From: Synechococcus sp. A15-28
GTDB taxonomy: Bacteria; Cyanobacteriota; Cyanobacteriia; PCC-6307; Cyanobiaceae
Reading direction: 5' to 3'
DNA: 32,000 nucleotides
NCBI RefSeq assembly: GCF_014280175.1
Contig: NZ_CP047931.1
Location: forward strand, 930,001 to 962,000
Shown here: piece by piece, positions 3,042 to 18,595 of the stretch
How positions within the stretch are numbered: position 1 is the stretch's first letter
How the letters are laid out: every line of letters begins with the position of its first letter
The notes under the pieces: model-generated
The model's database searches: none
Told to the model about the DNA's origin: nothing
What the model saw: the letters and a program-made list of their open reading frames with translations, nothing else
Made by a program: the position numbers and the translations under genes

Positions 3042-3647
3042 TCACTCCGACATCAGTTGGATACAGGCCCTCAGCCAGGCGTCGTCGTCTCCACCCGGTG
3101 GGCCTCCCCTGTCGTTGAGCCGTTTGAGAGCGGAGTGGATTTCTTCGGTTTCGTAGCCGAGGGTCTCCAATGTGGGGATCAGCTCCTGAGAAGCGGGATG
3201 GACCTCTGAGGGCTGACCATTCCCAAAGTCAACTCTGTCCTCCAGTTTTGAGCGCAGTTCGAGTGCCATGCGCTCCGCGGTGCGTTTTCCCACCCCCTGG
3301 GCACGACAAAGGGATTTGATGTCGGACTGGACTAATGCCCTCAGCAGCTCTTCCAGTTCGAGGGCATCAAGGAGGGCCAGTGCGGCCTGTGGTCCAACAC
3401 CGCTCACCCCGATGATGTCACGGAAGAGATCCCGCTCCGCGATGGATGCAAATCCGAAGAGTTGAAGGCTCTCAGCGCTCACCACTTGATGAACCCATCG
3501 CTCGTAATCCCTCTCAGTGATGAGGGCGCTCCAGTCCCGTTGAATCAGTTGCACTTCGTAGCCGATTCCCCCCGTGACAATTAGCGCAAAGCTGCGACTG
3601 CCTCGTTGAAAACGGTGCTTGATACTTCCCCGTAACCAGCCGATCAT
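3042..3647 (-). CDS. ruvA: Holliday junction branch migration complex subunit RuvA
   Basis: 201 aa. N-terminal 'MIGWLRG...GIGYEVQL' OB domain, HhH region 'GVSGVGPQAALALL ... CRAQGVGKRTAERMALEL', and a C-terminal domain III. Confidence 0.9.
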   Translation of the reverse strand: MIGWLRGSIKHRFQRGSRSFALIVTGGIGYEVQLIQRDWSALITERDYERWVHQVVSAESLQLFGFASIAERDLFRDIIGVSGVGPQAALALLDALELEELLRALVQSDIKSLCRAQGVGKRTAERMALELRSKLEDRVDFGNGQPSEVHPASQELIPTLETLGYETEEIHSALKRLNDRGGPPGGDDDAWLRACIQLMSE

Positions 3648-3717
3648 GGCTAACTGTCTATGGCTAAATCTTAAGGGTTGCCTCGCGAAGATGGGATTAA
3701 CAGTCTGTAGTCAATGC

Positions 3718-3745
3718 TTGACGTCTAATAAACCAGGACTATGAT
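3718..3745 (+). promoter_or_regulatory. Candidate sigma70-type promoter for the AT-rich operon (TTGACG-16 nt-TATGAT)
   Basis: TTGACG at 3718-3723 and TATGAT at 3740-3745, 20 nt upstream of the mrpC ATG. This would give a very short leader, so the call is tentative. Confidence 0.3.
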
Positions 3746-3765
3746 TCATACGAAAAAGAATCTTA

Positions 3766-4110
3766 ATGGTATTAACTCCTGAAAAATTAAGATTAATACC
3801 CATGGTGGTGCTGATTGTGATCGGCTGCTTTGGTCTGCTGACTTCGAAATCGATTCTGCGGTCGCTCTTTTCGCTTGATGTGATCGATACAGCAACAATT
3901 AGTATTTTTGTTCTAATTGCCGCGTCGGCCGGGTCTCAAACACCAATTGTTTCTGATTTTCGCTACAGCTCCTATTCGGATCCATACCCGCAAGCCATTA
4001 TTTTGACCGCAATTGTGATTGGTTTTGCTGCCCAAGCACTTTTGTGTTCGATTGCCCTTCGCCTAGGGCGTAGCTCGCCATTACTGCGATACAAAAATCT
4101 GGAGAAATGA
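3766..4110 (+). CDS. mrpC: Mrp/Mnh cation:proton antiporter subunit C (NuoK-like)
   Basis: 114 aa, 3 TM, NuoK/MnhC-like. 'SLFSLDVIDTA' and 'PYPQAIILTAIVIGFA'. ATGA overlap with the next gene. Confidence 0.8.
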   Translation: MVLTPEKLRLIPMVVLIVIGCFGLLTSKSILRSLFSLDVIDTATISIFVLIAASAGSQTPIVSDFRYSSYSDPYPQAIILTAIVIGFAAQALLCSIALRLGRSSPLLRYKNLEK

Positions 4111-5654
4111 TGGAATTAAGCATTCTTTTCCCGGCTTTAATTTTTTTGCCAGCAGCCCTAGGCTTTTTAGGTTGCATTTCTCCAAGGATAGTTTTTCCGA
4201 TAAGTATTGCAATGCTGCTTTCTTACGCAGCTCTCGCAGTAAATTCAATTAATTCTGATTTCTCTTACGCATTCACCCTGATCGGCGATGGTGGAATTCA
4301 GTTTTCAATTGACCAATACACCTTTCCCTTGGTATTTGGGAGTTCCGTCACACTCCTGATTTCTTTCGGCCTTTTCTACAAGAAATTTTCTCATTACTTT
4401 TACCAAGTCTGCTTAGTTCTTTTTACGGCTTTACTAATTTCATTTAGTACTGTTGATCTGGTCAGCATGTTTATTGCATTAGAGCTGGTTGGATTTGCAG
4501 CATTCCTGCTCATTGCTGATCGTAATGATAAAAAATCTTTGTTCAATTCTTTTCAGTATTTAATCGGTGGCGGATTGGCCATGCTGATTTATTTGGTTGG
4601 AGTTGTGCAGGCATTTACCTATACCGGCACCTTTCTTATTGCTGACCTTGTGCGTGCTCCTGAAACAGCACTTTGTTTGATTGTTGCAGGCCTACTCACA
4701 AAATCTGGTGTTTTTCTTTGCGGGCTTTGGGTTCCTAATATTTACTCCCATGCCAATTGCCAATCTTCAGCAATCCTGTCTGGATGTGTGACCTGTGCTG
4801 GAATAGCTCCAATTGCACGGATGAGTCAAACTCTCGCACCAATTGGAGATTCCATGGTGGTTATTGGTGTCATTAGTGCCGTGGTTGCTGCAATTTATGC
4901 AGTTTTTGAACGTGAGAGTGGTCGCGCTCTAGGCTGGAGTTCTGTATCACAACTCGGAATTGCAATTTTGTCACCGACCTATGCGTGTATTTATGCGATG
5001 CAGCATGGGATTTGCAAAGCCCTTCTATTTTCGACGTTACACACAAATTCAAGCAGTCAATTACCCCATAACTCTCACAGCGCACTTGGACATCACGGTC
5101 ATCAGTTGTCTACGAAGCATCCACCGATAGAGGAGTTTCTCCGGGTTTTAGTGTTTGTCATTGCCAGTTTATCAATTATGGGTTTTCCCTTCTTAACTGG
5201 CTTTGTCACAAAAAACTGGGTCAAAAGTGACTTACCATATGAAGCCAAAATTATTTACACTACTGCAGCATTATTAACATCGACAGTTTACGCACGTCTG
5301 ATTTACGATAGAACATCTCATTACATCAAAAATTATGGAACGAAATCAATAATTAATCTCCAACACATTAGTCGTAATGTTATTGATATTCTCTCTACGC
5401 CCAGACTTTGGATTTTGATATTCTCCTTTTCGCTTTTAATTGCTTATTCCTTTACTCAAACAGACATTTATTACGCTTCTTCGATAAGTTCTGCAATCAC
5501 TTCTGCAATTCTTGGTGGAATTCTTTTTGTCTCCGTGGTTGGAATCCAAGCTGATGAATTCGTCAAACCTGTTACGAGGACTTTGGATCTCGTGGGAGCG
5601 CCTTTTCTCGTCGCAGCTCTTTTGCTGGCCAATCTCCTGTATTTAAAAATCTGA
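4107..5654 (+). CDS. mrpD: Mrp/Mnh antiporter subunit D (NuoN/M-type antiporter-like subunit)
   Basis: 515 aa polytopic protein. 'LVSMFIALELVGFAAFLLIA', 'LTKSGVFLCGLWVPNIY', 'LGWSSVSQLGIAIL' and 'HGICKALLF' match proton-conducting antiporter-family hallmarks. Confidence 0.85.
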   Translation: MMELSILFPALIFLPAALGFLGCISPRIVFPISIAMLLSYAALAVNSINSDFSYAFTLIGDGGIQFSIDQYTFPLVFGSSVTLLISFGLFYKKFSHYFYQVCLVLFTALLISFSTVDLVSMFIALELVGFAAFLLIADRNDKKSLFNSFQYLIGGGLAMLIYLVGVVQAFTYTGTFLIADLVRAPETALCLIVAGLLTKSGVFLCGLWVPNIYSHANCQSSAILSGCVTCAGIAPIARMSQTLAPIGDSMVVIGVISAVVAAIYAVFERESGRALGWSSVSQLGIAILSPTYACIYAMQHGICKALLFSTLHTNSSSQLPHNSHSALGHHGHQLSTKHPPIEEFLRVLVFVIASLSIMGFPFLTGFVTKNWVKSDLPYEAKIIYTTAALLTSTVYARLIYDRTSHYIKNYGTKSIINLQHISRNVIDILSTPRLWILIFSFSLLIAYSFTQTDIYYASSISSAITSAILGGILFVSVVGIQADEFVKPVTRTLDLVGAPFLVAALLLANLLYLKI

Positions 5655-6088
5655 TGGCAAATTTTCTAAGACTGTGCCTTGTTTTGATTTTCCGGCTGAC
5701 GTGCTGGTGCCTTGTCACATCAAACCTCGACCCTAAAAACATTCTATTTGGCCTTCTTATATGCATTTTAATTCCATTTGGTGACTTCAGAAAGCTTCAG
5801 CTTAATGTCCTCATCCCAGAAATACTATTGACTTTGAGATTGCCAATCGATATGTTAAAGGAAAGCATTCAATTAATGTTCATCTCTGAACCTTGCGACT
5901 CATTTGTAGAGGAAAAGGTGAGCGATCGCGCTCGAAGAGGTTCCAAGTATGCCGAGTTTCTTGACTTGTTCCGTATAACATTTACTCCAATGTCATTGGT
6001 CACACGCCGTAAGGATGTGGACTCCTGGAGAGTGCATCTTGTCGTTAATTCTACTGAGGTCAACTCAGAAGGAGGTGATCAAGCATGA
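5654..6088 (+). CDS. mrpE: Mrp/Mnh antiporter subunit E
   Basis: 144 aa, two N-terminal TMs, and a C-terminal 'FRITFTPMSLV...WRVHLV' resembling the MnhE 'ITLTPGT...H' motif. Start overlaps the mrpD stop (TGATG). Confidence 0.7.
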   Translation: MANFLRLCLVLIFRLTCWCLVTSNLDPKNILFGLLICILIPFGDFRKLQLNVLIPEILLTLRLPIDMLKESIQLMFISEPCDSFVEEKVSDRARRGSKYAEFLDLFRITFTPMSLVTRRKDVDSWRVHLVVNSTEVNSEGGDQA

Positions 6089-6363
6089 CTACGATACAAG
6101 CCGTTCCAGTGAGCGTTGTTGAGTATGCAGTTATTTACGGCATGCTAGTTATAAGCATGGTTCCTGTCATTGCTATTTCACGCACAAGAGATACCCCTGA
6201 AAGAATCGCATATGCCTCTAGTTTCGGAAGTAAATTAGCTTTAATCATTATCACAGCGGGCATCTTTCGTGGTGATTGGATGATTGGTTGTATTGGAGCT
6301 TTCATTCTTATTGTTGGGGATGCAGGAATGTTGATTCTTTCCCTTTTGGAAATGAAAATTTAA
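6085..6363 (+). CDS. mrpF: Mrp/Mnh antiporter subunit F
   Basis: 92 aa, 3 TM, in the position and of the size expected for MrpF. GGAGG precedes the ATG, with an ATGA overlap onto mrpE. Confidence 0.6.
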   Translation: MTTIQAVPVSVVEYAVIYGMLVISMVPVIAISRTRDTPERIAYASSFGSKLALIIITAGIFRGDWMIGCIGAFILIVGDAGMLILSLLEMKI

Positions 6364-6364
6364 C

Positions 6365-6631
6365 ATGTTAGAAAATACTTCTACTTCTATTGTCTTTATT
6401 GGTCTTGTTTTCTGGCTCTGGGGAACTTTGCCTATTTTAAATCGACAACATTCAATCTTTTATAAATTACATACTCTTACTGTCGCTGACAGCGTTGGTT
6501 CACTTCTCATTATTTCCGCTTTATTGTTGAGGGCACCTCAATACTGGCCTCTGTTCCTGGTAACAGCTATTTCTCTTTCACTGTGGAATACTGTTCTCAG
6601 CTACATCCTTGGCAATACTTCTGATCGTTAA
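6365..6631 (+). CDS. mrpG: Mrp/Mnh antiporter subunit G
   Basis: 88 aa. 'GTLPILNRQHSIFYKLHTLTVADSVGSLLI' resembles the MnhG 'G..R.pD.y.RlHa....dt.G' motif. Confidence 0.7.
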   Translation: MLENTSTSIVFIGLVFWLWGTLPILNRQHSIFYKLHTLTVADSVGSLLIISALLLRAPQYWPLFLVTAISLSLWNTVLSYILGNTSDR

Positions 6632-6633
6632 TC

Positions 6634-7170
6634 ATGACTGAATACCTTCGAACGCTACTGCTCTTTCCATTTGAGCTTCTTCTTCCTGTTCTGGGACTGT
6701 TGCTGATTCAGTCCGAGTCGCCTATTAATAGTTTAATATATCGCTCATTTCTCGGAAGCATTGCCGCTCTTATTTATGCACTTATTGGTGCTCCAGATGT
6801 TGCTCTAACAGAGGTCATGGTTGGCACTCTCCTCTCATCATTGATTTATATTGTCACGATACGTTCCTGCTATACAGTCGTTATAATCGTTGACCGAAGT
6901 TCCCCTCCTGATACTGCGTTAAAAGACTCACTCAAATTAATTTTTGACGAACTCCATCTTAAAGTTGTTTATCAAGAGGAGGATATGACTGAATCAATGG
7001 AACACAACTTTCAGTTCCTCTCCTCATCAAAACTATCTGGCTCCCCACATACACTGATGTGTAGAACAACATTCTATGTTGAAGTTAAAACTTTGTTAGA
7101 CGATATTTGTCAAACTACTGCATACAAGCAAAATACTGCACTCTTTCAACTGAAGGAGGCGTTCTCATGA
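6634..7170 (+). CDS. MbhD/DUF4040-like membrane subunit (MrpA C-terminal-like) with an unusual ~85-aa soluble tail
   Basis: N-terminal 3-TM block 'YRSFLGSIAALIYALIGAPDVALTEVMVGTLLSSLIYIV' is like DUF4040/MbhD. The C-terminal half is hydrophilic. The NuoL-like MrpA N-terminal domain is absent. Confidence 0.6.
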   Translation: MTEYLRTLLLFPFELLLPVLGLLLIQSESPINSLIYRSFLGSIAALIYALIGAPDVALTEVMVGTLLSSLIYIVTIRSCYTVVIIVDRSSPPDTALKDSLKLIFDELHLKVVYQEEDMTESMEHNFQFLSSSKLSGSPHTLMCRTTFYVEVKTLLDDICQTTAYKQNTALFQLKEAFS

Positions 7171-7880
7171 CAATCCTATCCAATCTTCGTCGATTCAGGT
7201 TCACAACTGAAGTAGCAAAATCTGCTCTTTACCTTGCTGCTATTACAGCAGTGATGGCTATGATCCTATTTACGCGAGATGACTCCATAGCTCGCGATAC
7301 TGAACAGATTGTTCAATACTTATCTGACTATACGCAGATTCCTAACGTTGTAACTTCAGTCATTCTTGGGACAAGGCTCTTCGATACGATCGGTGAGGTC
7401 ACTGTATTTACGATTGCTGGTTTAGGTGTGAAGATACTTCTTCACGACGAAGACGCTGAAGAGCAGTTCGTGGGAATTGATGACCAAGTTATTCGTCTTT
7501 TGTTGGACTTTGCGGCACTTTTGAGCTGCTTCCTTGCCATCGATCTTGCCGTTAAAGGGCATTTGACGCCTGGTGGTGGATTTGCCTCTGGTGTTGCCGG
7601 TGCTACATCAATTACACTCCTTATGATTACAGGGCGCATTCAGACAGTGGAAGCCTTCTACTTCGGAGCCAACGCCCCTGCTGTTGAGAAAATAGCCGTT
7701 GTTCTATTCATTCTTGTCGCCTTATTTACCTTCAGTTCTTTCCTTGTATCTGATTCTGTGTTTGCATCAATACCTCCAACAATTTATATTCCAGCTCTTA
7801 ACATCATTGCTGCATTGAAGGTTACTATAGGTTCTTGGTCTATATTGCGTCTTTTCATTGTTAAGAGAGGGGTTCTCTAG
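7167..7880 (+). CDS. mrpB: Mrp/Mnh antiporter subunit B
   Basis: Start chosen at ATG 7167 (ATGA overlap with the upstream stop, GGAGG at 7154-7158) rather than the track start 7107. Motifs 'NVVTSVILGTRLFDTIGEVTVF' and 'GHLTPGGGFASGV' are MnhB hallmarks. Confidence 0.8.
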   Translation: MTILSNLRRFRFTTEVAKSALYLAAITAVMAMILFTRDDSIARDTEQIVQYLSDYTQIPNVVTSVILGTRLFDTIGEVTVFTIAGLGVKILLHDEDAEEQFVGIDDQVIRLLLDFAALLSCFLAIDLAVKGHLTPGGGFASGVAGATSITLLMITGRIQTVEAFYFGANAPAVEKIAVVLFILVALFTFSSFLVSDSVFASIPPTIYIPALNIIAALKVTIGSWSILRLFIVKRGVL

Positions 7881-8656
7881 TGATGGCCTATAGAGAGTCG
7901 GATGACTGGTACTTCGGTGATTACCTAGGCCGTATGCCTGGCCGTAGTTATTCACTATTTCTAAACTTTGTTATTATACTACTGTTTGCGCAAATTGCTT
8001 TAACAACTGAACCAACTGCTCACAGCAAGACTGGCGATATATTCCTTGATTTTGCCCTTGAGCTCATTGAGATTTTTTTTGTATGTGATTATATTGGTAA
8101 AATTGCAAACTCTTGGTCTAGATCTGATTACGGCCTGAAAAACCTTTTTGCCATACTATTTTCAAGGTTTGCTTTAATTGATTTTGCTCTTGTGTTTTTA
8201 CTATTGACAGACTTATTTGATAATGATTCTTTTGTAGTAATTTTTACATATGTTTTCAAGGCGCTTTTGTCAATGTACTTTTCTAGTTTTCAATCTGTCA
8301 TCAAGCGCGTCGGATTTATCGTTCTTGATTCACCTGCGTATACTTTTTTCCCGCTTGTCTTGCTCTCAATGGTGACCTATATAATGGCATTTTGTATTTA
8401 TTTGTTGGAGAGAACAAATGATGCTGAACACTTCGGTTCGATTGTACGAGCTTTTTGGTTCTCTATTGTCACGATGACAACTATTGGATATGGCGATGTT
8501 ACACCTACGACTTCGCTCGGAAAAATTCTTGCCATTGCATTCGGTATCATAGGGATTGTATGTGTGGCATTGTTGACGGCAAATATTCTTGAAGCAAATT
8601 CAAAATTTAATGAGCTCCAGTCTGATGCAAAATGCAAAGGTCTGACTCTGAATTAG
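7880..8656 (+). CDS. 6TM potassium channel (Ion_trans type) without cytoplasmic regulatory domain
   Basis: Canonical K+ selectivity filter 'TMTTIGYGD' between two C-terminal TMs, with about four TMs upstream. Start is GTG 7880 or ATG 7883, abutting the mrpB stop (TAGTGATG). Confidence 0.85.
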   Translation: MMAYRESDDWYFGDYLGRMPGRSYSLFLNFVIILLFAQIALTTEPTAHSKTGDIFLDFALELIEIFFVCDYIGKIANSWSRSDYGLKNLFAILFSRFALIDFALVFLLLTDLFDNDSFVVIFTYVFKALLSMYFSSFQSVIKRVGFIVLDSPAYTFFPLVLLSMVTYIMAFCIYLLERTNDAEHFGSIVRAFWFSIVTMTTIGYGDVTPTTSLGKILAIAFGIIGIVCVALLTANILEANSKFNELQSDAKCKGLTLN

Positions 8657-9411
8657 CTGTGTTTCAGAATGATCAAAGATCTACTCGAGACCATTCCCTT
8701 AATCACGTGCTTGACGTTGGCACACCCTATAAGATATTCGAAGCATATATATCATCCTATTCGCAATTCATAGACTTCATTAAATTTGGCTGGGGAAGTG
8801 CATTGATTGATCCTGAGTTTAAGTTGAAGAAGCAATTGTGTGATGAGTTCGATATTGTTCCTATGCTCGGAGGTACCTTTTTTGAATATATGATTCACCA
8901 CCATAGTTTCAACCATTTTATTGATACTGTCTCTAGCTTTGGGCTTAAATGCGTGGAATTAAGTCGAGGAACGATTGACATTGAGGATGCTTTATATGCA
9001 TCATATATTAAGTCTTTAGTGACTGATTTTTTTGTGATGAGTGAGGTCGGACGTAAGTCTGCACATCCTTCCTTGGCTCTTACTTCTTCACAATGGCTTT
9101 CTCATTGCGAATTATCTGCCAATGCAGGAGCTTCCTTGGTGATTTTGGAATCTCGGGAGTCTGGACGATCTGGTTATGTTTCGACAAGCGGTGATGTTAA
9201 TGCTGTGATGATTGACTCGATCACAAAAGTAGTTCCTGTGGATTCTCTTCTTTTCGAAGCTCCTATCAAATCGGTGCAGACTTTCTTGATCAAGCGATAC
9301 GGGGCTTCGGTTAACCTAGGGAATTTGGCTTTGTCAGACTTGATGTCTGTTCAGTCCCTGCGATTTGGGCTCCGCTCAGACACATTACTTGATGTTCAGG
9401 AAAGTCTTTAG
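8632..9411 (+). CDS. comA: (2R)-phospho-3-sulfolactate synthase family protein (ComA/YitD-like)
   Basis: 'FIDFIKFGWGSALI', 'GGTFFEY', 'VELSRGTI', 'VMSEVGRK', 'VILESRESG', 'LLFEAP.K..Q', 'GASVNLGN' and 'LRFGLRSDT' match my recollection of M. jannaschii ComA and B. subtilis YitD almost block for block. The start may instead be GTG 8659. Confidence 0.85.
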   Translation: MQRSDSELAVFQNDQRSTRDHSLNHVLDVGTPYKIFEAYISSYSQFIDFIKFGWGSALIDPEFKLKKQLCDEFDIVPMLGGTFFEYMIHHHSFNHFIDTVSSFGLKCVELSRGTIDIEDALYASYIKSLVTDFFVMSEVGRKSAHPSLALTSSQWLSHCELSANAGASLVILESRESGRSGYVSTSGDVNAVMIDSITKVVPVDSLLFEAPIKSVQTFLIKRYGASVNLGNLALSDLMSVQSLRFGLRSDTLLDVQESL

Positions 9412-9483
9412 ACGTGCTTTTCGTGTTTGTTTGATCCATGGTCATTCCCCTACTTTCCGCCTATCATGAGTTAGTACATTACC

Positions 9484-10377
9484 TTGAAAAAAGCGGTGGC
9501 AAGAGTTACTAGATTTGCATTTGTCCTTTTAATTGGAATAATATTTTCTCTTGGCTTTACTTTTCCTTTGAACGTCGAAGCTGCTGAAAATAGTTTTATC
9601 AATGATATTCAGCAGCGCGGTTTTCTAAAGGTTGGCTTGCCACCTTATAATACTCCCCCCGCTTATTATATTGACCCAAAGACTGACAAACTGTCGGGTT
9701 ACGATGTAGAGTTGGCGCGGCAATTGGCGGGCAAGTTAGGAGTTAATGTCGAATTTGATCGGACATCTGAGAGCTTTAATTCTCTTGTGAAAAGGGTTGG
9801 AGCTGGCGATTTTGATCTGGCAATCGGCAAGCTTGGGCTCACTTATAACCGTTTGTATGATGCATTCCCAATTCAATACCTCAGCTTCCGCCACGCTCTA
9901 CTTGCGAATCGCAAATTCATTTCTTCCTTAAAGGTTGATCCTGACGATCCTGAATTTGGCAGCGCCCTTAAAAGTTCGCAAATACGTATTGGTTCGATCT
10001 CGAACTCTACTTGGGAGACAGAGGCAAGGGTCAATTTCCCTAATTGTGAGTTCGTTGGTTTCTCCAGCTGGGATGAAGCTAAAAAAGCTCTGTTTGATGT
10101 AGATCCCAAAACAAACATGTCAACTATTGATGCGATCTATCGTGATGCGACCGAAATCAAGCCAATTGTATATAAAAATCCTGATTTGTCGTTGGATTTC
10201 GTTCCAGTTCTCTTTGATGACACTATTGACCGTAAATCTATATACCTCTCGGAAGCTGGGCATATTGCTTTCTCGGACTTTCTGAATACATTCATTCGTC
10301 GTGAATGGGGAGAGGTAAAAACTGATCAGCGAATTCTTGATGATTTTCAGTCTTACTACCAGCCATCAATTAATTAA
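9484..10377 (+). CDS. Periplasmic solute-binding protein, family 3 (polar amino acid/organic anion SBP fold)
   Basis: TTG start (or GTG 9496). Sec signal 'FAFVLLIGIIFSLGFTFPLNVEA|AE'. SBP_bac_3-like 'GFLKVGL...PPAYYIDPKTDKLSGYDVELARQLAGKLGVNVEF'. Confidence 0.75.
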   Translation: MKKAVARVTRFAFVLLIGIIFSLGFTFPLNVEAAENSFINDIQQRGFLKVGLPPYNTPPAYYIDPKTDKLSGYDVELARQLAGKLGVNVEFDRTSESFNSLVKRVGAGDFDLAIGKLGLTYNRLYDAFPIQYLSFRHALLANRKFISSLKVDPDDPEFGSALKSSQIRIGSISNSTWETEARVNFPNCEFVGFSSWDEAKKALFDVDPKTNMSTIDAIYRDATEIKPIVYKNPDLSLDFVPVLFDDTIDRKSIYLSEAGHIAFSDFLNTFIRREWGEVKTDQRILDDFQSYYQPSIN

Positions 10378-10392
10378 TTTCTTCCTTTAGTC

Positions 10393-11775
10393 ATGTCCTT
10401 CTCAACCTCTAATAGTTTTTTTCATCGGCTTTTCTCTATTCTTCCTGTACTGCGTAAGCCGCGAAACTTTTTCTTCTATATTCTTCCTTTTTCGATTGTC
10501 TTTGGTCGCATTATTCCGCCATCCTATGCATCAGCTTTGAATGAAGCTGGTCTGGCGATGGTTCAACTTATTGCTTTCCCGGCCATTCCTTTGGTCTTGT
10601 CGGCGGTGATGATCTCGATTTGTAATATATTTAGTGCGAATAACCGATCACGACTTAGTAGGGTTCGCTTCTCTGGTCGTTTCTTGATATCTCTGTCGTT
10701 GACAATCCTCTTGGCTGCTTTGCTAGCCATTCTTCTCTCGATCTATCAGTCGCCAGGTGTGTTGTCGCCAGAAGGTAAATTGTCAATTGGTCGGTTTATG
10801 CTTGACATTACTGATATACGTATCGGATCTGCTCTGGTTGATTCGGAAGCTGCGAGTGATTTTTGGATTGCGAAGATTGTTCCAAGTAATATCCTCGCTG
10901 ATGCGTCACAAGGCCAGACGCTACGAGTGATTAGTGGTTCGGTTTTGGCTGGTATTGCAATGTCAAAGCTCAAGCCTTCTTTAACTGACCCTTTGATTTC
11001 AGTATTGAGAAGCGTCAATTCTACATCTGTTCAGGTATTGAATATTGTTCTCAATCTTGCTCCTCTTGTTCTGATCTGTTTGATATCAGGCGCGGTGTCA
11101 ACCATAAATGCTGAGATTGTTGTCGCCTTGTTGAATTTCACGATCTGTGTATTTTTGACAGCTATAGCATCGCTCGGGATTTCACGCCTTGTTTTTCGGA
11201 GATTTACATCCACGAGCGAGCGTGACTCGCTCTCGTCTAATCCCATCGACTCGGTATTTCTGCTCAGTCTTTCGACCGGGAGCAGCATGACTGCCTATCC
11301 CTTGATGTATGAAACATTAATCGGAATTGGGAGGGACGAGTCTGAGGTTGAAGCGTCAGCCTCGCTGAGTTTGTTAATCGCTCGCCTAGGCAATGTCACG
11401 TACAATGTCATTGCGATCATGTTCGCTTTGAATCTTTATGAAGTAGGCATAACTCCTGTGCGGTTTTTCGAAATCCTCGTTCTAGGTGCGGTTACTGGAA
11501 TATCAGCAGCAGGTTTGACGGGCGTTGCGACTGTCCCCACCATCGGAGTCGCTCTTGCATACTTCCAGCTTCCTGTTCCACCTGTGCTTGTTCTTCTTCT
11601 TGCGATTGATCCGATTCTTACTCTTCCACGTGCTGCGACGACAGGTGTTTTGGCTATGGCCATCTCTGTTATCTCCTCAGGACGTTCTACTTCGACAGAA
11701 TCTTCTTCGAAGTCTGGATCATCCTTTTCACTTCTCAGTCAGGATGGTGAAGCTCCCTCATTGGAAGGAGGCTGA
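10393..11775 (+). CDS. Divergent dicarboxylate/amino acid:cation symporter (DAACS/SDF, GltP-like)
   Basis: 460 aa polytopic protein. HP1-like 'STGSSMTAYP', TM7-like 'GNVTYNVIAIMFA', HP2-like 'GISAAGLTGVATVPTIGVAL', TM8-like 'AIDPILTLPRAATTGVLA'. Ser-rich C-terminal tail. Confidence 0.7.
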   Translation: MSFSTSNSFFHRLFSILPVLRKPRNFFFYILPFSIVFGRIIPPSYASALNEAGLAMVQLIAFPAIPLVLSAVMISICNIFSANNRSRLSRVRFSGRFLISLSLTILLAALLAILLSIYQSPGVLSPEGKLSIGRFMLDITDIRIGSALVDSEAASDFWIAKIVPSNILADASQGQTLRVISGSVLAGIAMSKLKPSLTDPLISVLRSVNSTSVQVLNIVLNLAPLVLICLISGAVSTINAEIVVALLNFTICVFLTAIASLGISRLVFRRFTSTSERDSLSSNPIDSVFLLSLSTGSSMTAYPLMYETLIGIGRDESEVEASASLSLLIARLGNVTYNVIAIMFALNLYEVGITPVRFFEILVLGAVTGISAAGLTGVATVPTIGVALAYFQLPVPPVLVLLLAIDPILTLPRAATTGVLAMAISVISSGRSTSTESSSKSGSSFSLLSQDGEAPSLEGG

Positions 11776-12227
11776 TGAAGCTCCTGCCAGGCATTGTTGA
11801 ATTGGTTGAAATCCTTAGCAAATTCTTTATTTCTTTGCTGACGGTCTGTCTGTTGACGGCTTGCTCTGTGCGCAATGAACCACCGCGTGCCATTGTCATC
11901 GAGGCTTTGCAGTCTCAAATCCTCACGACTCAAGTCTCCATTGCCCAGAGTCTGGACTTAGAGCCATTAGCTTCTGCACCAGATGTCAGTCGTGTTCGCG
12001 TTGACCATCAAGAAGCTCTGCAGGTTGATGGAGAGCGTTTCGTTCATCTGGAAGGAAGTTTTGATTGGCAATTGCCTCGAGATAGTGTTCGCGTAGACAG
12101 TACTTTTGATCTTTACCTTCAGCGTGGTTCGCGTGGTGAGGGCTGGAATCTGGCCAGACCTGTCACCAGCGATGGTGATGAGGCCCAGCGTTGGTTGCTC
12201 TATCCCCTCGGCTTGCCCGCAAGTTGA
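11775..12227 (+). CDS. Hypothetical lipoprotein
   Basis: Strong GGAAGGAGG lies 6 nt upstream. Start overlaps the upstream stop (TGATG). Lipobox 'LLTAC'. Composition is intermediate between the island and the backbone. Confidence 0.5.
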   Translation: MKLLPGIVELVEILSKFFISLLTVCLLTACSVRNEPPRAIVIEALQSQILTTQVSIAQSLDLEPLASAPDVSRVRVDHQEALQVDGERFVHLEGSFDWQLPRDSVRVDSTFDLYLQRGSRGEGWNLARPVTSDGDEAQRWLLYPLGLPAS

Positions 12228-13115
12228 TCAGGTCTGACGGCTGGAGAGGCTGATGAACGAGGCGCTCAGCACCAACGCTGCACCCATGCATGTGAATGCG
12301 GTGATCGATTCGTTTAACCAGATCCAGCCCCAGCTCGCTGCAAACACCACCTGCACGTAGTTCAACGATGTCGCCCTCGCCGCCGGCAGGCAGCTCAGCC
12401 CCTTGGTGACCCAGATCTGGCCAAGTTGGGTCAAGACACCGACTCCGAGTAACCAGAGCCAGTCCAGTCCCACTGGCCAGACTCCGTTTTGAATCACCAT
12501 CGGCAGCGTCAAGGGAATTGACACGAGTGGGAAATAGAGAATGATCACCAACGGGTGTTCCTTGGTGGATAAACGGCGGACGCACACGTAAGCCAGGGCC
12601 GTAAACAGGGCTCCGCCCAGGGCTGCCATCACGGGTTGTGTTGCCAGTCCGATTTGGCCCGCACCAAGCCATTCCGGCTGGATCACCATCACCACGCCGA
12701 TCCAACCCAGCACCACGGCGATGCCGATGCGACGACGCAATCGCTCCCCAAGCAACAGCCAGGCTGCACCCGCTGTAAAGGTTGGGTACGTGTACTGCAG
12801 AACCGTTGCGGACGCCAGTGGTAGCGAGGTGATCGCTTCGAAGAAGCAGAGGAGAGCAATGCTCCCGCAAATGCCACGCAGCAACAGCAAGCGTCGGTTG
12901 CTGCCCAGGGGATTGATTCCTCCGAGCGCCATGGCTGTTCCCGTCAAGGCGATGCTCACAACCGATCGAACCAGCACGATCTCGCTGACGGGGATTCGCC
13001 CCCCCAGTTGCTTGACGCACACCGTCATCAGGCTGAAGGCCAATGAGCTCAGAACCAGGGCCCTTGCCCCCTGGATCTCCTGGCGCTGCCACCAAGCCAA
13101 GGTCTGCTCATTCAT
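12228..13115 (-). CDS. EamA/DMT-family transporter
   Basis: 295 aa, about 10 TM, two EamA-like halves. Its stop abuts the stop of the convergent upstream gene with zero spacer. Confidence 0.8.
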   Translation of the reverse strand: MNEQTLAWWQRQEIQGARALVLSSLAFSLMTVCVKQLGGRIPVSEIVLVRSVVSIALTGTAMALGGINPLGSNRRLLLLRGICGSIALLCFFEAITSLPLASATVLQYTYPTFTAGAAWLLLGERLRRRIGIAVVLGWIGVVMVIQPEWLGAGQIGLATQPVMAALGGALFTALAYVCVRRLSTKEHPLVIILYFPLVSIPLTLPMVIQNGVWPVGLDWLWLLGVGVLTQLGQIWVTKGLSCLPAARATSLNYVQVVFAASWGWIWLNESITAFTCMGAALVLSASFISLSSRQT

Positions 13116-13134
13116 GCGTGTGCTCTAGCTCCTG

Positions 13135-15225
13135 ATGGGTGGACGCGGACCTGTGACTTCGCAGAATGGCCCCATGGTCAATGCCCGTCTTCACCCCCGC
13201 ACGATCGACGCCGTCAAGGAGCGGGCCGACATTGTTGATGTGGTGGGTGACCACGTTGTTCTGAAGAAGAAGGGACGGGAGTTTGTCGGCATCTGTCCGT
13301 TCCACGACGACAGCAAGCCGTCGATGACGGTGTCTCCCGCCAAGCAGTTCTACTACTGCTTCTCCTGTGGTGCCGGCGGCAACTCCATCAAGTTCCTGAT
13401 GGAGTTTCAGCGACAGAGTTTCAGCGACGTGGTGCTTGACCTGGCCCGGCGCTATCAGGTGCCTGTCGAGACTGTTGACGGCCCTCAGCAGGAGCGGCTG
13501 AAGCAGCAACTCTCCAGGCGAGAGAAGCTGCAACGTGCTCTGGCACTGGCGGCTGGTTGGTTTCGCAGCCAGCTGCGCAGTCCAGTGGGTGAGCCAGCCC
13601 TTGCTTACCTCACTGAAGCTCGTGGCCTTTCACCATCCACCCAGGAGACGTTTGGCCTTGGCTATGCCCCCGATCAATGGGACGGGCTGCTGAAGCATCT
13701 GCAGCAGGTGGAAGGACTCCCCCCTGAGCTCTTGGAGGCGGCTGGTTTGGTCGTTCCCCGCAAAGGTGGAAACGGCTTCTACGACCGTTTTCGCCATCGG
13801 GTGATGGTTCCGATTCACGACCGTCAGGGCCGTGTGATCGGTTTCGGTGGCAGGAGTTTGGACGGCAGCGAGCCCAAGTATCTGAATTCGCCAGAGACGG
13901 AGGTTTTCGAGAAAGGCAAGCATCTTTTCGGTCTCGACAAGGCCACCAACACCATTCGCAAGCAGGACCGCGCTGTGGTGGTGGAGGGCTACTTCGATGT
14001 CATCGCTCTGCATGCAGCCGGGATCACCAATGCGGTGGCGTCCCTTGGAACGGCCCTCAGCAGCCAGCAGATCACCCAGCTCTGTCGCGTCACCGATGGC
14101 AAGCGCATCGTTCTCAACTTCGACGCCGACGGCGCTGGCGTGCGTGCTGCTAACCGCGCCATCGGTGAAGTCGAGCAGCTGGCCCTGCAGGGCCAGCTTG
14201 AGCTGCGGGTGCTGCATCTGCCCTCCGGCAAGGACCCGGATGAGTTCCTGAAGGACCATGGCGCCGGGGATTACCGGGCCCTGCTTGACCAGGCGCCCCT
14301 CTGGTTGGACTGGCAGATCGAACAGGCCCTCGCTGATCGCGACCTGGCCAAAGCGGATCAATTCCAGCAGGCGGTCTCGGCCCTCGTGGCTCTGCTGGGC
14401 AAGCTGCCCCAGTCGGCGGTGCGCACGCACTACCTCCAGCGCGTTGCTGAACGCCTTAGTGGAGGCCAGGGCCGACTGGCGCTGCAGCTGGAGGAGGACC
14501 TGCGCCAACAGGTCAAGGGGCAGCGTTGGCATGGTCGCTCCAGCCGCCATGACCAACCTGGCGACATCAGTCAGCGGGAGCGCTGTGAGGCTGATCTGCT
14601 GCGGCTTTATCTGCATGCCCCCCGACACAGGGGAACGATCCGCCAGGAGTTGCGGCACCGGGAACTGGAGGATTTCGCGATTCCCCATCACCGGCTGCTG
14701 TGGGCATCGTTGACGGAACTTGAGGAGACCAACCTGGGAGTTGGTCGCCTGGAAGCCATCAGCTGTGGTGAGGATGACGGGGATGGTCTGGACGGGCTTG
14801 ATCTGCCCCGTCTGCTCACGGACCAGTTGCTGTTGGAAAACAGTTCGCTGCTGTCTCGGCTGACGCCATTGCTGGAGCCGGGGGAACTGGAGCGTGTCGC
14901 TCTGGCGGAACCGCTCGAACAGCTTCGAGGCCTCATGGCACTGCTGGAGCGGCAGAAGAGTTTCAAGCGCTGCCGCCATCTGCTCGAAGCCTGGGGTGGG
15001 CAGCGTCTGCAGACTTTGGAAGCCTGCATTGCCGTTTTGGTTCAAGAGAACCAGGAGGATCAGCAGGACGTGGATATGGAAGGTCGCATCGAGACGCTCT
15101 TCGAGCAGCTCAACCGTGATGCGTTGCACTACCAGGAGCTCTACTACACCGAGAGAAAGCACATCCAGCACCTCGATCAGCAACGTCGCGGCGGCTTCCA
15201 GACGGTTGATGCCTTGTCGGCCTGA
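13135..15225 (+). CDS. dnaG: DNA primase
   Basis: Zinc-ribbon 'CPFHDDSKPSMTVSPAKQFYYCFSCGAGGN', RNA polymerase core, and TOPRIM 'VVVEGYFDVIAL ... NFDADGAG'. An alternative start is ATG 13174. Confidence 0.95.
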   Translation: MGGRGPVTSQNGPMVNARLHPRTIDAVKERADIVDVVGDHVVLKKKGREFVGICPFHDDSKPSMTVSPAKQFYYCFSCGAGGNSIKFLMEFQRQSFSDVVLDLARRYQVPVETVDGPQQERLKQQLSRREKLQRALALAAGWFRSQLRSPVGEPALAYLTEARGLSPSTQETFGLGYAPDQWDGLLKHLQQVEGLPPELLEAAGLVVPRKGGNGFYDRFRHRVMVPIHDRQGRVIGFGGRSLDGSEPKYLNSPETEVFEKGKHLFGLDKATNTIRKQDRAVVVEGYFDVIALHAAGITNAVASLGTALSSQQITQLCRVTDGKRIVLNFDADGAGVRAANRAIGEVEQLALQGQLELRVLHLPSGKDPDEFLKDHGAGDYRALLDQAPLWLDWQIEQALADRDLAKADQFQQAVSALVALLGKLPQSAVRTHYLQRVAERLSGGQGRLALQLEEDLRQQVKGQRWHGRSSRHDQPGDISQRERCEADLLRLYLHAPRHRGTIRQELRHRELEDFAIPHHRLLWASLTELEETNLGVGRLEAISCGEDDGDGLDGLDLPRLLTDQLLLENSSLLSRLTPLLEPGELERVALAEPLEQLRGLMALLERQKSFKRCRHLLEAWGGQRLQTLEACIAVLVQENQEDQQDVDMEGRIETLFEQLNRDALHYQELYYTERKHIQHLDQQRRGGFQTVDALSA

Positions 15226-15263: not shown

Positions 15264-16277
15264 GTGATGGGCCTGTTTGAGCGCTATCTCTCCCTTTGGA
15301 TTGCTCTGGCAATTGTGGTGGGCGTGGTCCTGGGGGGCCTGCTGCCTGATCTGGCGGCCTGGATCGCCTCGCTGGAGGTGGCCCGCATCAACCTTCCCAT
15401 CGCCGTTCTCATCTGGGGGATGATTGTCCCGATGATGCTGGCGGTGGACTTCTCCGCCATCGGCGGCATCCGCCAGCAACCACGCGGACTGCTGATCACC
15501 GTGGCGGTGAACTGGTTGATCAAGCCGCTCACGATGACGGCTTTGGCCTGGGTGTTCATCCGTGGCGTGTTCGCGGCCTGGATCCCGGATGCCATGGGCC
15601 AGGAGTACGTGGCCGGCATGATTCTGCTGGGGGTGGCTCCCTGCACCGCAATGGTGTTTGTGTGGAGTCGCCTCAGTGATGGGGATCCCAACTACACCCT
15701 GGTGCAGGTGGCCGTGAACGACCTGATCATGGTGTTCGCCTTTGCACCGATTGCGGCACTGTTGCTGGGGGTGAGTGATGTGCTGGTGCCGTGGGACACG
15801 ATGATCACGGCGGTGGGCCTGTTCGTGGTGGTGCCCTTGGCGGCGGGTTGGTTGATGCGGGTGTTGTTGAAGTCTCCCGGTCGGATCGAGCGCTTGGAGG
15901 CTCAGCTCAAACCGCTGTCGATCACGGCGCTGATCGCCACCGTGCTGTTGCTGTTCATGGTGCAGGCCCAGGCGATCCTGTCCAATCCCCTGGCGATCGT
16001 GTTGATTGCGATTCCGCTGATCCTGCAGACCTATTTGATCTTCTGGCTCACGGCGCAGTGGATGCGTCTCTGGGGGCAACCGCGCACGGTTGCAGCCCCC
16101 GGCGCCATGATCGGCGCCTCCAATTTTTTTGAACTGGCGGTGGCTGTGGCCATCAGCCTGTTCGGCTTGAATTCCGGCGCCGCCCTCGCCACTGTGGTGG
16201 GCGTGCTGGTGGAGGTGCCGGTGATGCTGTCGCTGGTGGCGATCGCCAACCGCAACCAACGTCTGTTCCCCGCCTGA
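15264..16277 (+). CDS. acr3: ACR3-family arsenite efflux transporter
   Basis: '[17 protein letters not shown]', '[16 protein letters not shown]' and the ACR3 signature '[13 protein letters not shown]'. GTG 15264 and ATG 15267 are both possible starts. Confidence 0.9.
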
Positions 16278-16278
16278 G

Positions 16279-16536
16279 ATGTCTGAATTCTTCGAAGCGA
16301 TCTGGCACGGCGAGGGCATCGGCGACGGTGCCGACCTGGAGGAAGCTCTCCAGTCCTATGTCGTGGTGAAACCTGATGACGGCGACTGGGTGGAGGCCTG
16401 TGCCGCTGATGGGGCGGATCCAGTGATTGAACGCTTTCCTTCCTTTGACGCCTATCTGGACAATGCCGATCCGCTGGAGACCATTGCAGTGTCGCCGCAG
16501 ATGATTGCTGAGGCGATCGCGCTGTTGCCGGTCTGA
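16279..16536 (+). CDS. Hypothetical small acidic protein
   Basis: 85-aa ORF, 1 nt after the acr3 stop. GC3-rich codon pattern. No recognisable motif. Confidence 0.5.
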   Translation: MSEFFEAIWHGEGIGDGADLEEALQSYVVVKPDDGDWVEACAADGADPVIERFPSFDAYLDNADPLETIAVSPQMIAEAIALLPV

Positions 16537-16832
16537 TGTCGGACGCTCAGCTCGATTTCGCGGCCCTTACGCCCGTGAACCATCTCTGGCCCGCCTTCGT
16601 CGAGCGTCTTGGCACCGACAAAGCCCAGCGAGCCGTGCGGCAAGCCCTTGATCTTCAGGGCATGCGTGGCCATGACGGCACGTTGCCGGTTCTGTTTGTC
16701 GAAACCGGTGGTCTTGCACTGGCGAGTACCGATCTGGTGCGGGAGCAGACGGGACTCAATGCCCATGGCGATCGGATGGTGCTACTGCTCAGCAGCCGCG
16801 ATCAGGTGATCCAGTTGCTGCAGCAGGCTTAG
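16536..16832 (+). CDS. Hypothetical protein
   Basis: 98-aa ORF whose start overlaps the upstream stop (TGATG). No recognisable motif. Confidence 0.5.
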   Translation: MSDAQLDFAALTPVNHLWPAFVERLGTDKAQRAVRQALDLQGMRGHDGTLPVLFVETGGLALASTDLVREQTGLNAHGDRMVLLLSSRDQVIQLLQQA

Positions 16833-16854
16833 AGCTCTGTTCTCTGCTTCCTGC

Positions 16855-18135
16855 TCAGCGATCGGCGTGCACCACCGGAATATCACTCAGCCGGGTGGTG
16901 GCGGTGCGCCCCAGCCGCTCCCGTCGCATCATCCAGCTCGGGTGGATTCCGCAGGCGGCCCACTGCACCGTGCCTCGGCCATAGCGGCGATTGAGCTGGT
17001 CAATCGTCCGCATCAGCTGCTCCCGTCGTTGTTGCTGTTCCTCACTCATCGGCACCAGGAGATGGGACTGGAGCAGTTCTGTTCCCTGCAGGTGCTGCAT
17101 CAGCACCCCCGCCTTCGCCAGCTGCCGGTGTGGCCGGAAGATGCGGTCCACGAGGGGGAGTGCTGCCTCCAGTAGCACGCTGGTGTCGTTGCTGGGCAGA
17201 TCCAGCCGGGTGCTGGCGGCCTGGCTGTAAAAGGCGGGGATGAAGGGGCTGGTGCGGGTGTACACCGTGAGGGCGGCAGCCCGTTGGCGTTGCTTGCGCA
17301 GCTTCTCTGCAGCGCGCACCACATAGGTGGCCACCGCCTGACGCAGTTCCTCCCGTGTCGTGATCGGCCGGCTGAAGCTGCGGCTCACGCAGGTTTCCTG
17401 TTTGGGGGCTGGTGCCAGCGCCAGCGGCAGGCAGGCATGGCCGCGCAGCTCCCGTTGCAGCCTCAACCCCACCACGCCGCACTTCGCCCGCAGTTCACCG
17501 CTGGGCATGTCCCGCAGCAGGCGGGCGTTGCAAACCCCCCGCAAGCGGCACCAGCGCGCCAGTTTGCGGCCGATCCCCCAGACGTCCTCGATCGCGATGG
17601 TCTCGAGCCAGCGATCGGGATCCGTGCCGTGGCCCAGATCGAAGATGCCGGCATGGGCGGGAACCTGCTTGGCCAGGCGGTTGGCCAGTTTTGCCTGGCT
17701 TTTGCTGGCCCCCAGGCCGATGGCGATCGGCAGGCCCAGCTCCTGTCGGACCCGGGCCCGCAGGGACCGGCCCCAGGTCTGCAGGTCACCATGCTTCGGA
17801 CGACGGACGCGCCCGAAGGCTTCGTCGATGGAATAGATCTCGAGTTCTTCGCAGTGGATCTCCAGCAGGCTCATCATCCGCTGGCTCATGTCGGCGTACA
17901 GGGCGTAGTTGGAACTGCGCACCACCACGTTCTGGCGTTCCAGCTCCTGACGAGCCTTGAAATAGGGAGTCCCCATTGCAATGCCGAGGGCCCGGGCTTC
18001 AGCGCTGCGGGCCACGATGCAGCCGTCGTTGTTGGACAGCACCACGACGGGTTTGCCGATCAGGCTGGGGTCGAGGCTCTGTTCGCAGGAGGCGTAGAAG
18101 TTGTTGCCGTCGATCAGGGCGGTGGCAAGGCTCAT
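16855..18135 (-). CDS. umuC: Y-family translesion DNA polymerase V catalytic subunit
   Basis: 'ALIDGNNFYASCE', 'VVVLSNNDGCIVARS', 'YSIDEAF' and 'IEDVWGIGRK' are typical of UmuC. Confidence 0.9.
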   Translation of the reverse strand: MSLATALIDGNNFYASCEQSLDPSLIGKPVVVLSNNDGCIVARSAEARALGIAMGTPYFKARQELERQNVVVRSSNYALYADMSQRMMSLLEIHCEELEIYSIDEAFGRVRRPKHGDLQTWGRSLRARVRQELGLPIAIGLGASKSQAKLANRLAKQVPAHAGIFDLGHGTDPDRWLETIAIEDVWGIGRKLARWCRLRGVCNARLLRDMPSGELRAKCGVVGLRLQRELRGHACLPLALAPAPKQETCVSRSFSRPITTREELRQAVATYVVRAAEKLRKQRQRAAALTVYTRTSPFIPAFYSQAASTRLDLPSNDTSVLLEAALPLVDRIFRPHRQLAKAGVLMQHLQGTELLQSHLLVPMSEEQQQRREQLMRTIDQLNRRYGRGTVQWAACGIHPSWMMRRERLGRTATTRLSDIPVVHADR

Positions 18136-18136
18136 G

Positions 18137-18568: not shown

Positions 18569-18581
18569 AGGCCATCATGGT

Positions 18582-18595
18582 AGTACATCTGTACT
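18582..18595. promoter_or_regulatory. Cyanobacterial-type LexA (SOS) box AGTAC-ATCT-GTACT
   Basis: Perfect palindrome 'AGTACATCTGTACT' fits the RGTACNNNDGTWCB consensus reported for cyanobacterial LexA. It lies 14-27 nt upstream of the umuD GTG. Confidence 0.6.

Follow-up and report, generated by a model that had tools for sequence, protein, structure and literature searches.

The 32,000-nucleotide stretch of Synechococcus sp. A15-28 analyzed here (the window; contig NZ_CP047931.1, positions 930,001 to 962,000 of the forward strand) contains, between ruvA and a conserved gene that we call hyp150, an 11-gene, operon-like flexible genomic island of marine picocyanobacteria. The island is old, shared and flexible. 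Its invariant core consists of seven Mrp genes, a gene for a binding protein of the SBP_bac_3 family (SBP) and a gene for an elevator transporter of the SDF family, whereas a K+ channel, the phosphosulfolactate synthase family member ComA and, in Prochlorococcus, a VOC-family protein are accessory. No phototrophs in the ocean are more abundant than Synechococcus and Prochlorococcus, whose flexible islands are considered carriers of niche adaptation.

Layout and composition of the array

Twelve open reading frames (ORFs), all on the + strand, tile positions 3766 to 12227. An earlier note on this DNA, made by reading the letters, had given the common orientation correctly and had counted 13 genes; beyond that miscount, the last of the 12 ORFs, hyp150, belongs to the backbone, because ruvA and hyp150 are adjacent in Cyanobium and Prochlorococcus, and the array proper comprises 11 genes. 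The six overlap junctions that the note had quoted are exact (ATGA at 4107-4110, 6085-6088 and 7167-7170; TGATG at 5652-5656 and 11773-11777; TAGTG at 7878-7882). The channel and comA ORFs overlap by 25 nt (7880-8656 and 8632-9411), and the other intergenic gaps in the array measure 1, 2, 15 and 72 nt. Pfam searches recovered the gene content that had been named from the translations: Mrp subunits, an Ion_trans_2 K+ channel, ComA, SBP_bac_3 and SDF. The features are listed below, with GC for G+C content and GC3 for its value at third codon positions.

3042..3647, - strand: ruvA, left flank, backbone gene (Pfam RuvA_N, HHH_5 and RuvA_C)
3648..3765, + strand: island leader with a sigma-70-type promoter, no Rfam match
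3766..4110, + strand: mrpC, NuoK/MbhG-like (PF00420, 4e-18; NF005620, 133.8 bits against a cutoff of 91)
4107..5654, + strand: mrpD, NuoN/MbhH-type (PF00361, 2.4e-26; NCBIfam MrpD models below their cutoffs)
5654..6088, + strand: mrpE-like gene (PF01899 below the Pfam threshold; position fits the group-3 order)
6085..6363, + strand: mrpF-like gene, assigned by position and size only (92 aa, hydrophobic)
6365..6631, + strand: mrpG (PF03334, 7.8e-14)
6634..7170, + strand: short 'MrpA', MbhD-like, 178 aa (PF13244 MbhD, 2.9e-14)
7167..7880, + strand: mrpB with MbhE and MnhB domains (PF04039, 2.3e-12, and PF20501; NF009218, 263 bits against a cutoff of 184)
7880..8656, + strand: six-transmembrane K+ channel, accessory (PF07885, 1.8e-18, and PF00520)
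8632..9411, + strand: comA, phosphosulfolactate synthase family, accessory (PF02679, 1.3e-59); QNI42112.1 / WP_286187911.1 of A15-28
9484..10377, + strand: SBP_bac_3 binding protein, secreted (PF00497; N-terminal signal-like segment)
10393..11775, + strand: 'R-type' SDF (DAACS-family) transporter (PF00375, 6e-35)
11775..12227, + strand: hyp150, right flank, lipoprotein-like conserved backbone gene without a Pfam family
12228..13115, - strand: DMT/EamA transporter (PF00892), backbone, GC 0.60 and GC3 0.74, syntenic in all relatives

GC, GC3, tetranucleotide and codon-usage analyses all set the array apart from its surroundings, in agreement with its earlier description as AT-rich; the hand counts given with that description (25/60, 18/60 and 39/60 G+C on single lines) were exact. 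GC was 0.417 for positions 3648-11774 versus 0.561 in the rest of the window, and GC3 was 0.32-0.43 in the array genes versus 0.64-0.82 in the flanking genes. In tetranucleotide profile, the island correlated with the two flanks at r = 0.02 and -0.25, as against r = 0.81 between the flanks themselves. Every array gene was nearer to array than to backbone codon usage, which separated all array genes from all backbone genes.

The top promoter-like site of the region lies in the leader, with a -35 element TTGACG at 3718-3723 and a -10 element TATGAT at 3740-3745 (10/12 matches). When the sequences upstream of mrpC from 10 Synechococcus-type lineages were aligned, including a deletion scar described below, CTTGAC and TA...T were the sole invariant blocks. 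Read by eye, this alignment contained no NtcA-type site (GTA-N8-TAC) or other recognizable operator, and only a loose 'TTAACA' was conserved besides the -35 and -10 elements. Terminators were not in excess within the array. Neither the leader nor the 72-nt gap between comA and the SBP gene gave an Rfam match at E <= 1, and the presence of a riboswitch or another known RNA there was rejected.

Occupied, empty and scarred sites

In Cyanobium-type metagenome-assembled genomes and Prochlorococcus single-amplified genomes, the gene order is (dnaE)-pam68-rpsO-ruvA-hyp150-DMT-dnaG...umuC, so that ruvA and hyp150 are immediate neighbors. The empty locus is therefore the ancestral state. Scanning metagenome contigs with hyp150 gave 25 loci, of which 22 were occupied, two cleanly empty (L105 and L106) and one a deletion scar (L124), a tally that is biased because the search patterns were taken from island carriers only. 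The empty sites lie on backbones 97-98% identical to occupied ones, with flank identities of 97-99% to the occupied loci L101, L107 and L109; for example, empty L105 is 97.75% identical to L109 across 10.4 kb and 99.5% identical to L107 across 553 nt of the right flank. In the alignment of empty and occupied sites, homology ends at the ruvA start codon (about 3647) and restarts within the 5' end of hyp150 at about 11850, which gives the island an extent of about 8.2 kb (3648 to about 11850). No target duplication was visible at this boundary in that alignment.

Gene by gene, empty L105 and occupied L101 shared nucleotide identities of 96.9% in dnaE, 93.7% in pam68, 96.6% in rpsO, 96.5% in hyp150 and 98.4% in the DMT gene, while ruvA reached just 71.0%. 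Because ruvA stands at 71% among flanking genes that are otherwise 94-98% identical, the comparison points to a ruvA allele swapped along with the island, that is, to the footprint of homologous recombination in the flanks with a divergent donor. Such recombination fits the absence of an integrase and of attachment (att) sites. A classical integrative element was rejected in its favor: the window scan found no tRNA, no direct repeats flank the array, and Pfam detected no integrase domain among the window proteins, as the earlier note had also reported, and a target duplication was likewise missing. A phage as vector was rejected as well, since ComA was not found in a search of the IMG/VR viral contigs. 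Between the window and L011, RuvA has 70% amino-acid identity where DnaE has 96%, so that ruvA looks like either a recombination breakpoint zone or an allele hitch-hiking with the island. Two contigs stop close to the ruvA start, L096 within 77 nt and L098 within 307 nt of it, the latter reaching just 192 nt into mrpC; such ends at the junction of ruvA and the array would be expected if a population heterogeneous at this site had made the assembly fork.

In the scar (L124, 717-1168), the promoter region and mrpC codons 1-20 are fused to SDF codons 386-459, the last 74 of that gene (E = 1e-14), and the island was thus lost through internal deletion.

At the right edge, the compositional boundary at 12227 is real. 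The GC3 of hyp150 was 0.45 in the window versus 0.64-0.65 in L105, L107 and L109, occupied or empty alike, and the allele with island-like GC3 is that of the window and of L091; the imported tract therefore probably included a donor hyp150 allele. Because the hyp150 start codon overlaps the SDF stop codon, the island gives this gene a new 5' end and probably its transcription too. The first 20-25 codons of hyp150, up to a lipobox-like 'LLTAC' (11775-11850), had no homology to the empty-site allele.

The island keeps a GC of 35-45% within backbones of 55-62% GC, even in lineages (L011, L091, L093 and L101) that diverge down to 79.5% dnaE nucleotide identity, a divergence at which synonymous sites are expected to be largely turned over. 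One old transfer does not account for this missing amelioration. A low-GC picocyanobacterial origin of the island is plausible. Repeated exchange within an island-specific gene pool may maintain its composition, or GC-biased conversion or selection may act less strongly on a segment that only part of the population carries.

Distribution and natural variants

Seventeen metagenome contigs encode a ComA identical to that of the window, and the long ones among them share its flanks. The only named organism in the ComA clusters looked up was A15-28, a cultured clade IIIb strain (PMC8786288), and the island is accordingly rare in culture. A RuvA-based genome scan for named relatives yielded one close species, RuvA evolving too fast for this purpose. 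At the same locus, the array was found in Synechococcus backbones whose DnaE has from 100% down to 89% amino-acid identity to that of the window, and island and backbone identities order the relatives alike (L011 > L093 > L091). The island is thus no acquisition of a single strain, being widespread at this locus with a divergence that orders relatives in the same way as the backbone.

In Prochlorococcus-type contigs (L095 and L128-L130; contig GC 25-42%; Pcb antenna gene in L095, 531 bits), the same genes occur in the same order at a different locus. The preserved order at a second locus marks the array as a unit, and protein identities of 41-70% between the window and the Prochlorococcus module (47% for ComA) indicate that the order has held over a long divergence. 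The GC of this module matches that of its host, roughly 30%, and its neighbors are a MIP aquaporin or a Na/Ca exchanger. It contains one extra gene, of the VOC/glyoxalase family, after ComA (L095 10001-11138; also L128, L129 and L130). A ComA-VOC pair was found as well in a non-cyanobacterial contig of 64-78% GC (L131 8001-9195) devoid of genes for Mrp, the channel, SBP and SDF; as the pair exists elsewhere, the VOC-containing Prochlorococcus layout looks ancestral. ComA-VOC looks like a conserved two-gene unit that is missing from the Synechococcus version.

Other loci lack parts of the array. In L134 and L135, comA is replaced by 560-715 nt of AT-rich non-coding DNA without a remnant, and this lineage is well represented, with index entries for its SDF protein in 45 blocks of the contig collection. 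L125, L132 and L133 carry neither the channel nor ComA, again without a ComA remnant. These natural variants define the seven Mrp genes, SBP and SDF as the invariant core. In L093, a second low-GC islet lies between the DMT gene and dnaG (10874-14363); it carries a second, divergent pair of SBP_bac_3 and R-type SDF genes, 28-32% identical to the first, and a small acetyltransferase-like gene.

We consider it very probable that the array is a horizontally exchanged unit. The earlier note had called it a single foreign operon-like unit and had suggested a synteny comparison of the ruvA-to-DMT interval. The array is indeed foreign to the ancestral locus, which is empty in Cyanobium, Prochlorococcus, L105 and L106; it is present or absent on nearly identical backbones, occurs as a unit at two loci and has a single invariant promoter. 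What did not hold is an acquisition particular to the strain, given the 22 occupied hyp150 loci.

An Mrp cluster with a single MrpD

The Mrp genes follow the order C-D-E-F-G-A-B, which is that of group 3. MrpB, MrpC, MrpD and MrpG all exceed Pfam thresholds, and MrpC and MrpB reach NCBIfam equivalog cutoffs; the mrpF-like gene is kept in every occupied locus. The short 'MrpA' has NCBIfam matches at MrpA positions of about 613-720 only, which places it within the C-terminal region of Bacillus MrpA, and is devoid of the N-terminal antiporter-like domain. MrpD is the lone antiporter-like subunit, as the array encodes no second Proton_antipo_M (PF00361) protein, and the cluster thus departs from the rule that an Mrp system has two or more antiporter-like subunits (MrpA N-domain plus MrpD, or D1/D2/D3). 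Read by eye in its translation, MrpD keeps the Glu of transmembrane helix (TM) 5 and the Lys residues of TM7 and TM12.

Among characterized systems, the closest arrangement is the group-3 (CPA3) cluster mrpCD1D2EFGAB of Aphanothece halophytica, which functions as a Na+/H+ antiporter (PMC5703873). The island shares the C-D-E-F-G-A-B order and the short 'MrpA' and 'MrpB', but it has a single MrpD-type subunit in place of the two or three of that group, is carried by a mobile island and comes without exception with the SBP and SDF pair. The membrane module MbhA-H of the membrane-bound hydrogenase of Pyrococcus likewise has one antiporter-like subunit together with MbhD/E-type and MrpB, C, E, F and G-type small subunits, a set that we take to equal that of the island; Pfam names two of the island proteins MbhD and MbhE. 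In contrast to Mbh, no hydrogenase, NuoH-like or peripheral-arm genes are nearby, and the cluster stands alone as a predicted transporter.

The SBP and SDF pair

The SBP gene adjoins the SDF gene in every occupied locus. The island SDF shares with GltPh, GltTk, GltP and DctA the PF00375 fold, the serine-rich hairpin HP1 ('STGSS'), the glycine motif of hairpin HP2 ('GISAAGLTG') and the equivalent of the substrate-binding Arg397. Compared with GltPh-type structures, N310-M311-D312-G-T314 is changed to A-R-L-G-N, D394 to T, N401 to T and D405 to A. In GltPh, Asp394 binds the alpha-amino group of the substrate, and the Na+-site residues are those of NMDGT, N401 and D405 (GltPh numbering). By analogy with GltPh and GltTk, the changes presumably remove residues of the three Na+ sites as well as the substrate amino-group contact, and on this point the earlier label of anion/cation symporter needs amending. 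The island SDF thus differs from GltPh-type transporters in having neither the known Na+ sites nor the amino-group contact, and in being paired with an SBP or, in relatives, fused to one.

SDF matches numbered 760 among 1.84 billion cluster representatives at E <= 1e-3, and 14 at E <= 1e-30. Arg replaces Met311 in 105 of 124 full-length relatives, while the canonical NMDGT was found in 3-4 only, and Arg at this position therefore marks a large uncharacterized branch of the SDF family. Position 394 is Thr in all island copies and in 4/124 of the branch, and Asp in 87/124 broader relatives. Fusions of SBP_bac_3 and SDF made up five of the 10 long SDF relatives, and two more had dCache and cyclase domains. 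These proteins of the R-type branch are P0435, P0519, P0460, P0446, P0458, P0462 and P0425; in the fusions, SBP_bac_3 is attached at either the N- or the C-terminus. Proteins of 1200 aa that combine SDF, dCache and adenylate/guanylate cyclase domains within the Arg-type branch suggest transporter-receptors.

The island SBP aligned over its full length with the SBP domain of the fusion P0460 (28% identity, E = 2e-31), as compared with about 1e-9 at best, and for the N-lobe only, against solved amino-acid binders. P0460 consists of a signal peptide, the SBP, one TM helix and the SDF, a layout that places its SBP outside the membrane. A linker TM helix is missing from the C-terminal SBP fusions, one of which is also without ligand motifs. 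In the island SBPs, T-x-x-R and Asp are retained at what we take to be the alpha-carboxylate and alpha-amino binding positions of HisJ/GlnBP-type proteins.

The missing Na+-site residues of the SDF and the fusion of its distant relatives to SBP_bac_3 speak for a binding-protein-associated transporter, and SBP and SDF probably function as a pair. The occurrence of relatives as fusions suggests that this class is widespread. We therefore put forward, tentatively and as a claim that is more doubtful than the pairing itself, that SBP_bac_3 and the Na+-site-less, Arg-for-Met311 SDF represent a new, widespread class of binding-protein-associated secondary transporter, hard-wired in marine picocyanobacteria to a single-MrpD Mrp as a mobile cassette for ion and organic-anion balance, with ComA-made, nitrogen-free (phospho)sulfolactate as an option. 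TRAP, TTT and TAXI-GltS systems likewise couple an SBP genetically to a secondary, non-ABC transporter, in separate and fused forms; the TAXI-GltS class of binding-protein-dependent secondary transporters dates from 2025 (PMC12344293). The island, however, uses SBP_bac_3, normally an ABC partner, together with SDF instead of DctQM, TctAB or GltS, and is analogous to these systems at most, not a member of any.

The K+ channel and ComA

The translation of the channel contains the selectivity filter TTIGYGD and no cytoplasmic gating domain. Its S4-equivalent has scattered K, K and R only, without a regular Arg ladder when read by eye, and NCBIfam Kv models scored far below their cutoffs. A split, GluR0-like ligand-gated K+ channel made up of SBP and channel was rejected, since the SBP stays with the SDF where the channel is absent and the SBP relatives are fused to SDF proteins, not to channels. 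The channel also gave a weak Lig_chan match below threshold.

ComA covers PF02679 at profile positions 5-243 of 243 and matches the structures of the family at full length, with 3.6e-47 for B. subtilis YitD (PDB 1u83; residues 8-252 aligned) and 2.7e-39 for M. jannaschii ComA (1qwg). With 181 bits against TIGR03849, it lies under the equivalog cutoff of 280 and is thus a family member, not a certified functional equivalent. It differs from ComA/YitD further in its setting among ion transporters without ComB and ComC partner genes, and the VOC-family gene that follows ComA in Prochlorococcus and other bacteria is not present in the window.

A proposed ion and counter-anion cassette

The explanation that in our view best accounts for these data, and that we hold to be reasonably probable, combines the mobile cassette with the following mechanism. 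The Mrp complex would spend proton-motive force to expel Na+, and the channel would admit K+ down the membrane potential. An organic acid would balance the charge, captured outside by the SBP and passed on to the SDF. In the full version of the island, ComA would also make a counter-anion inside the cell from phosphoenolpyruvate and sulfite, in the form of nitrogen-free (phospho)sulfolactate. The aquaporin and Na/Ca-exchanger neighbors in Prochlorococcus fit an ion or osmotic theme. Taken by itself, the physiology of ions and counter-anions is a possibility that falls short of being probable.

Several observations weigh against this account, among them the bias of the occupancy tally. Judged from its subunits, the predicted minimal Mrp, with a single antiporter-like subunit and no MrpA N-domain, may be doubtful as an antiporter. 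For MrpE, PF01899 gave matches below threshold only (E 4e-3 to 1.8e-5), in three of five orthologues (the window and two others), which is weak, and MrpF, placed by position, had no Pfam or NCBIfam match in five orthologues. Motif positions give conflicting hints about the substrate, as the SBP keeps amino-acid-binding positions and the SDF has Thr for Asp394. In the C-terminal fusions, the SBP domain may be cytoplasmic and regulatory. Neither a ComB phosphatase nor a ComC dehydrogenase gene occurs in the array or in the rest of the 32-kb window, although such genes, like a second mrp cluster, may lie elsewhere in the A15-28 genome. Moreover, ComA and the channel are absent in common variants, so that K+ and sulfonate cannot be the essential logic of the module; the earlier note had named a sulfonate theme, and given how dispensable both genes are, the sulfonated solute is an add-on at most. 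Finally, protein searches with ComA and SDF identified no donor outside picocyanobacteria: ComA identities run from 93 to 43% across a picocyanobacterial series and then fall to matches of about 40%, whose few organism names are actinobacterial, and those of SDF drop to relatives at 31-33%.

Among the alternatives, the one with the most in its favor is nutrient scavenging, in which SBP and SDF would provide high-affinity uptake of amino or organic acids as a source of nitrogen, carbon or sulfur in oligotrophic water, the Mrp complex would balance ions and pH, and the channel and ComA would be passengers. It agrees well with a core of Mrp, SBP and SDF from which ComA and the channel can be missing, with the T-x-x-R and Asp of the SBP, which are typical of amino-acid binders, and with the second SBP and SDF pair that some genomes carry next to an acetyltransferase gene; the carrier strain moreover belongs to clade III, a clade of warm, oligotrophic waters. 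Yet an SDF without the amino-group Asp and the Na+ sites makes an obligatory linkage to a Na+/H+ antiporter hard to explain, seven Mrp genes are a heavy accessory for a single permease, and the ion- and water-channel neighbors in Prochlorococcus suit an ion theme better. We regard nutrient scavenging as possible, though rather unlikely. A reading centered on sulfur would have ComA detoxify or store sulfite as (phospho)sulfolactate, or run in reverse on sulfolactate or cysteate imported by SBP and SDF, with the ion transporters secondary. ComA is a strong family member, its conserved pairing with a VOC gene, seen both in Prochlorococcus and in a non-cyanobacterial contig of high GC, suggests a sulfonate pathway of two steps, and the SDF keeps the Arg that binds an acidic group. 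Against this stand the abundant variants without ComA or any remnant of it, a Synechococcus version that has no VOC, ComB, ComC, kinase or lyase gene, and a reverse reaction of ComA that has no known precedent, all of which leave the sulfur-centered reading improbable.

Two further explanations deny that the array is a functional or an imported unit. The site might be a recombination hot spot that gathers unrelated genes, common direction and tight spacing being a matter of packing. Sub-blocks do come and go (ComA; channel and ComA; the VOC gene), a further low-GC islet lies beside the DMT gene in L093, and the hyper-variable ruvA adjoins the site. A hot spot does not explain, on the other hand, why Mrp, channel, ComA, SBP and SDF keep their order at another locus in Prochlorococcus at 41-70% identity, why start and stop codons overlap, or why the array has a single conserved promoter without surplus terminators, and we give this explanation little credence. 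Vertical descent of an ancestral operon, made AT-rich by membrane-protein composition or low expression, would agree with the identical ranking of relatives by island and backbone and with an island that remains at 35-45% GC in lineages with saturated synonymous sites. It is very improbable, since the site is empty in Cyanobium, in Prochlorococcus and in contigs that match occupied ones at 97-98% identity, the shift lies in GC3 and not in amino-acid composition alone, the DMT gene next door encodes a membrane protein at a GC3 of 0.74, and the Prochlorococcus copy occupies another locus.

Novelty and significance

None of the gene families in the island is new, and flexible islands of low GC are the usual case in these organisms. 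Like other flexible islands of marine picocyanobacteria (e.g. PMC7522525), this one has a low GC, is present or absent among close relatives, sits at a fixed hot-spot locus and carries niche-related transporter cargo; it differs in its cargo combination and in that it appears to be rare in culture and common in metagenomes. The earlier note knew of no description of the combination as a unit, and our literature search, which was incomplete, also found none of the island, of a group-3 Mrp that has a single MrpD and is linked to a transporter pair, of ComA in picocyanobacteria or of the SBP_bac_3-associated, Na+-site-less SDF branch; notes on any of these may exist elsewhere, for instance in Cyanorak or TCDB. 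The text and supplements of the comparative picocyanobacterial genome papers searched made no mention of the cargo combination.

As A15-28 is the only named carrier in the ComA clusters looked up and 22 of the 25 metagenome loci in our biased sample are occupied, culture-based catalogues may under-represent the island, for which A15-28 offers a direct experimental handle. The natural series of full, ComA-less, channel- and ComA-less, scarred and cleanly empty loci could link genotype to niches of salinity, pH or nutrients. The island also raises the questions of whether an Mrp with one antiporter subunit can exchange Na+ for H+ and whether an SBP-fed branch of the glutamate-transporter family works without Na+.

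Other features of the window

To the right of dnaG (15264-21972), the window encodes an SBF-like transporter, umuC/umuD-type genes (16855-18568, - strand), an RTX-repeat protein (18662-19438), a 2OG-Fe(II) oxygenase, a SPOUT methyltransferase and a pentapeptide-repeat protein. The RTX-repeat gene of L132 and L133 lies between dnaG and umuC and is larger, at 452 aa. Lowered GC (0.42-0.48) was also seen at 24250-25750, 26750-27500 and 29000-32000, tracts that may represent further islets. They contain small ORFs without a Pfam family, for example at 24499-24813 (- strand) and 25254-25673, and surround a PIN-PhoH gene (27615-29003) and a LOG/lysine-decarboxylase-like gene (29028-29924).

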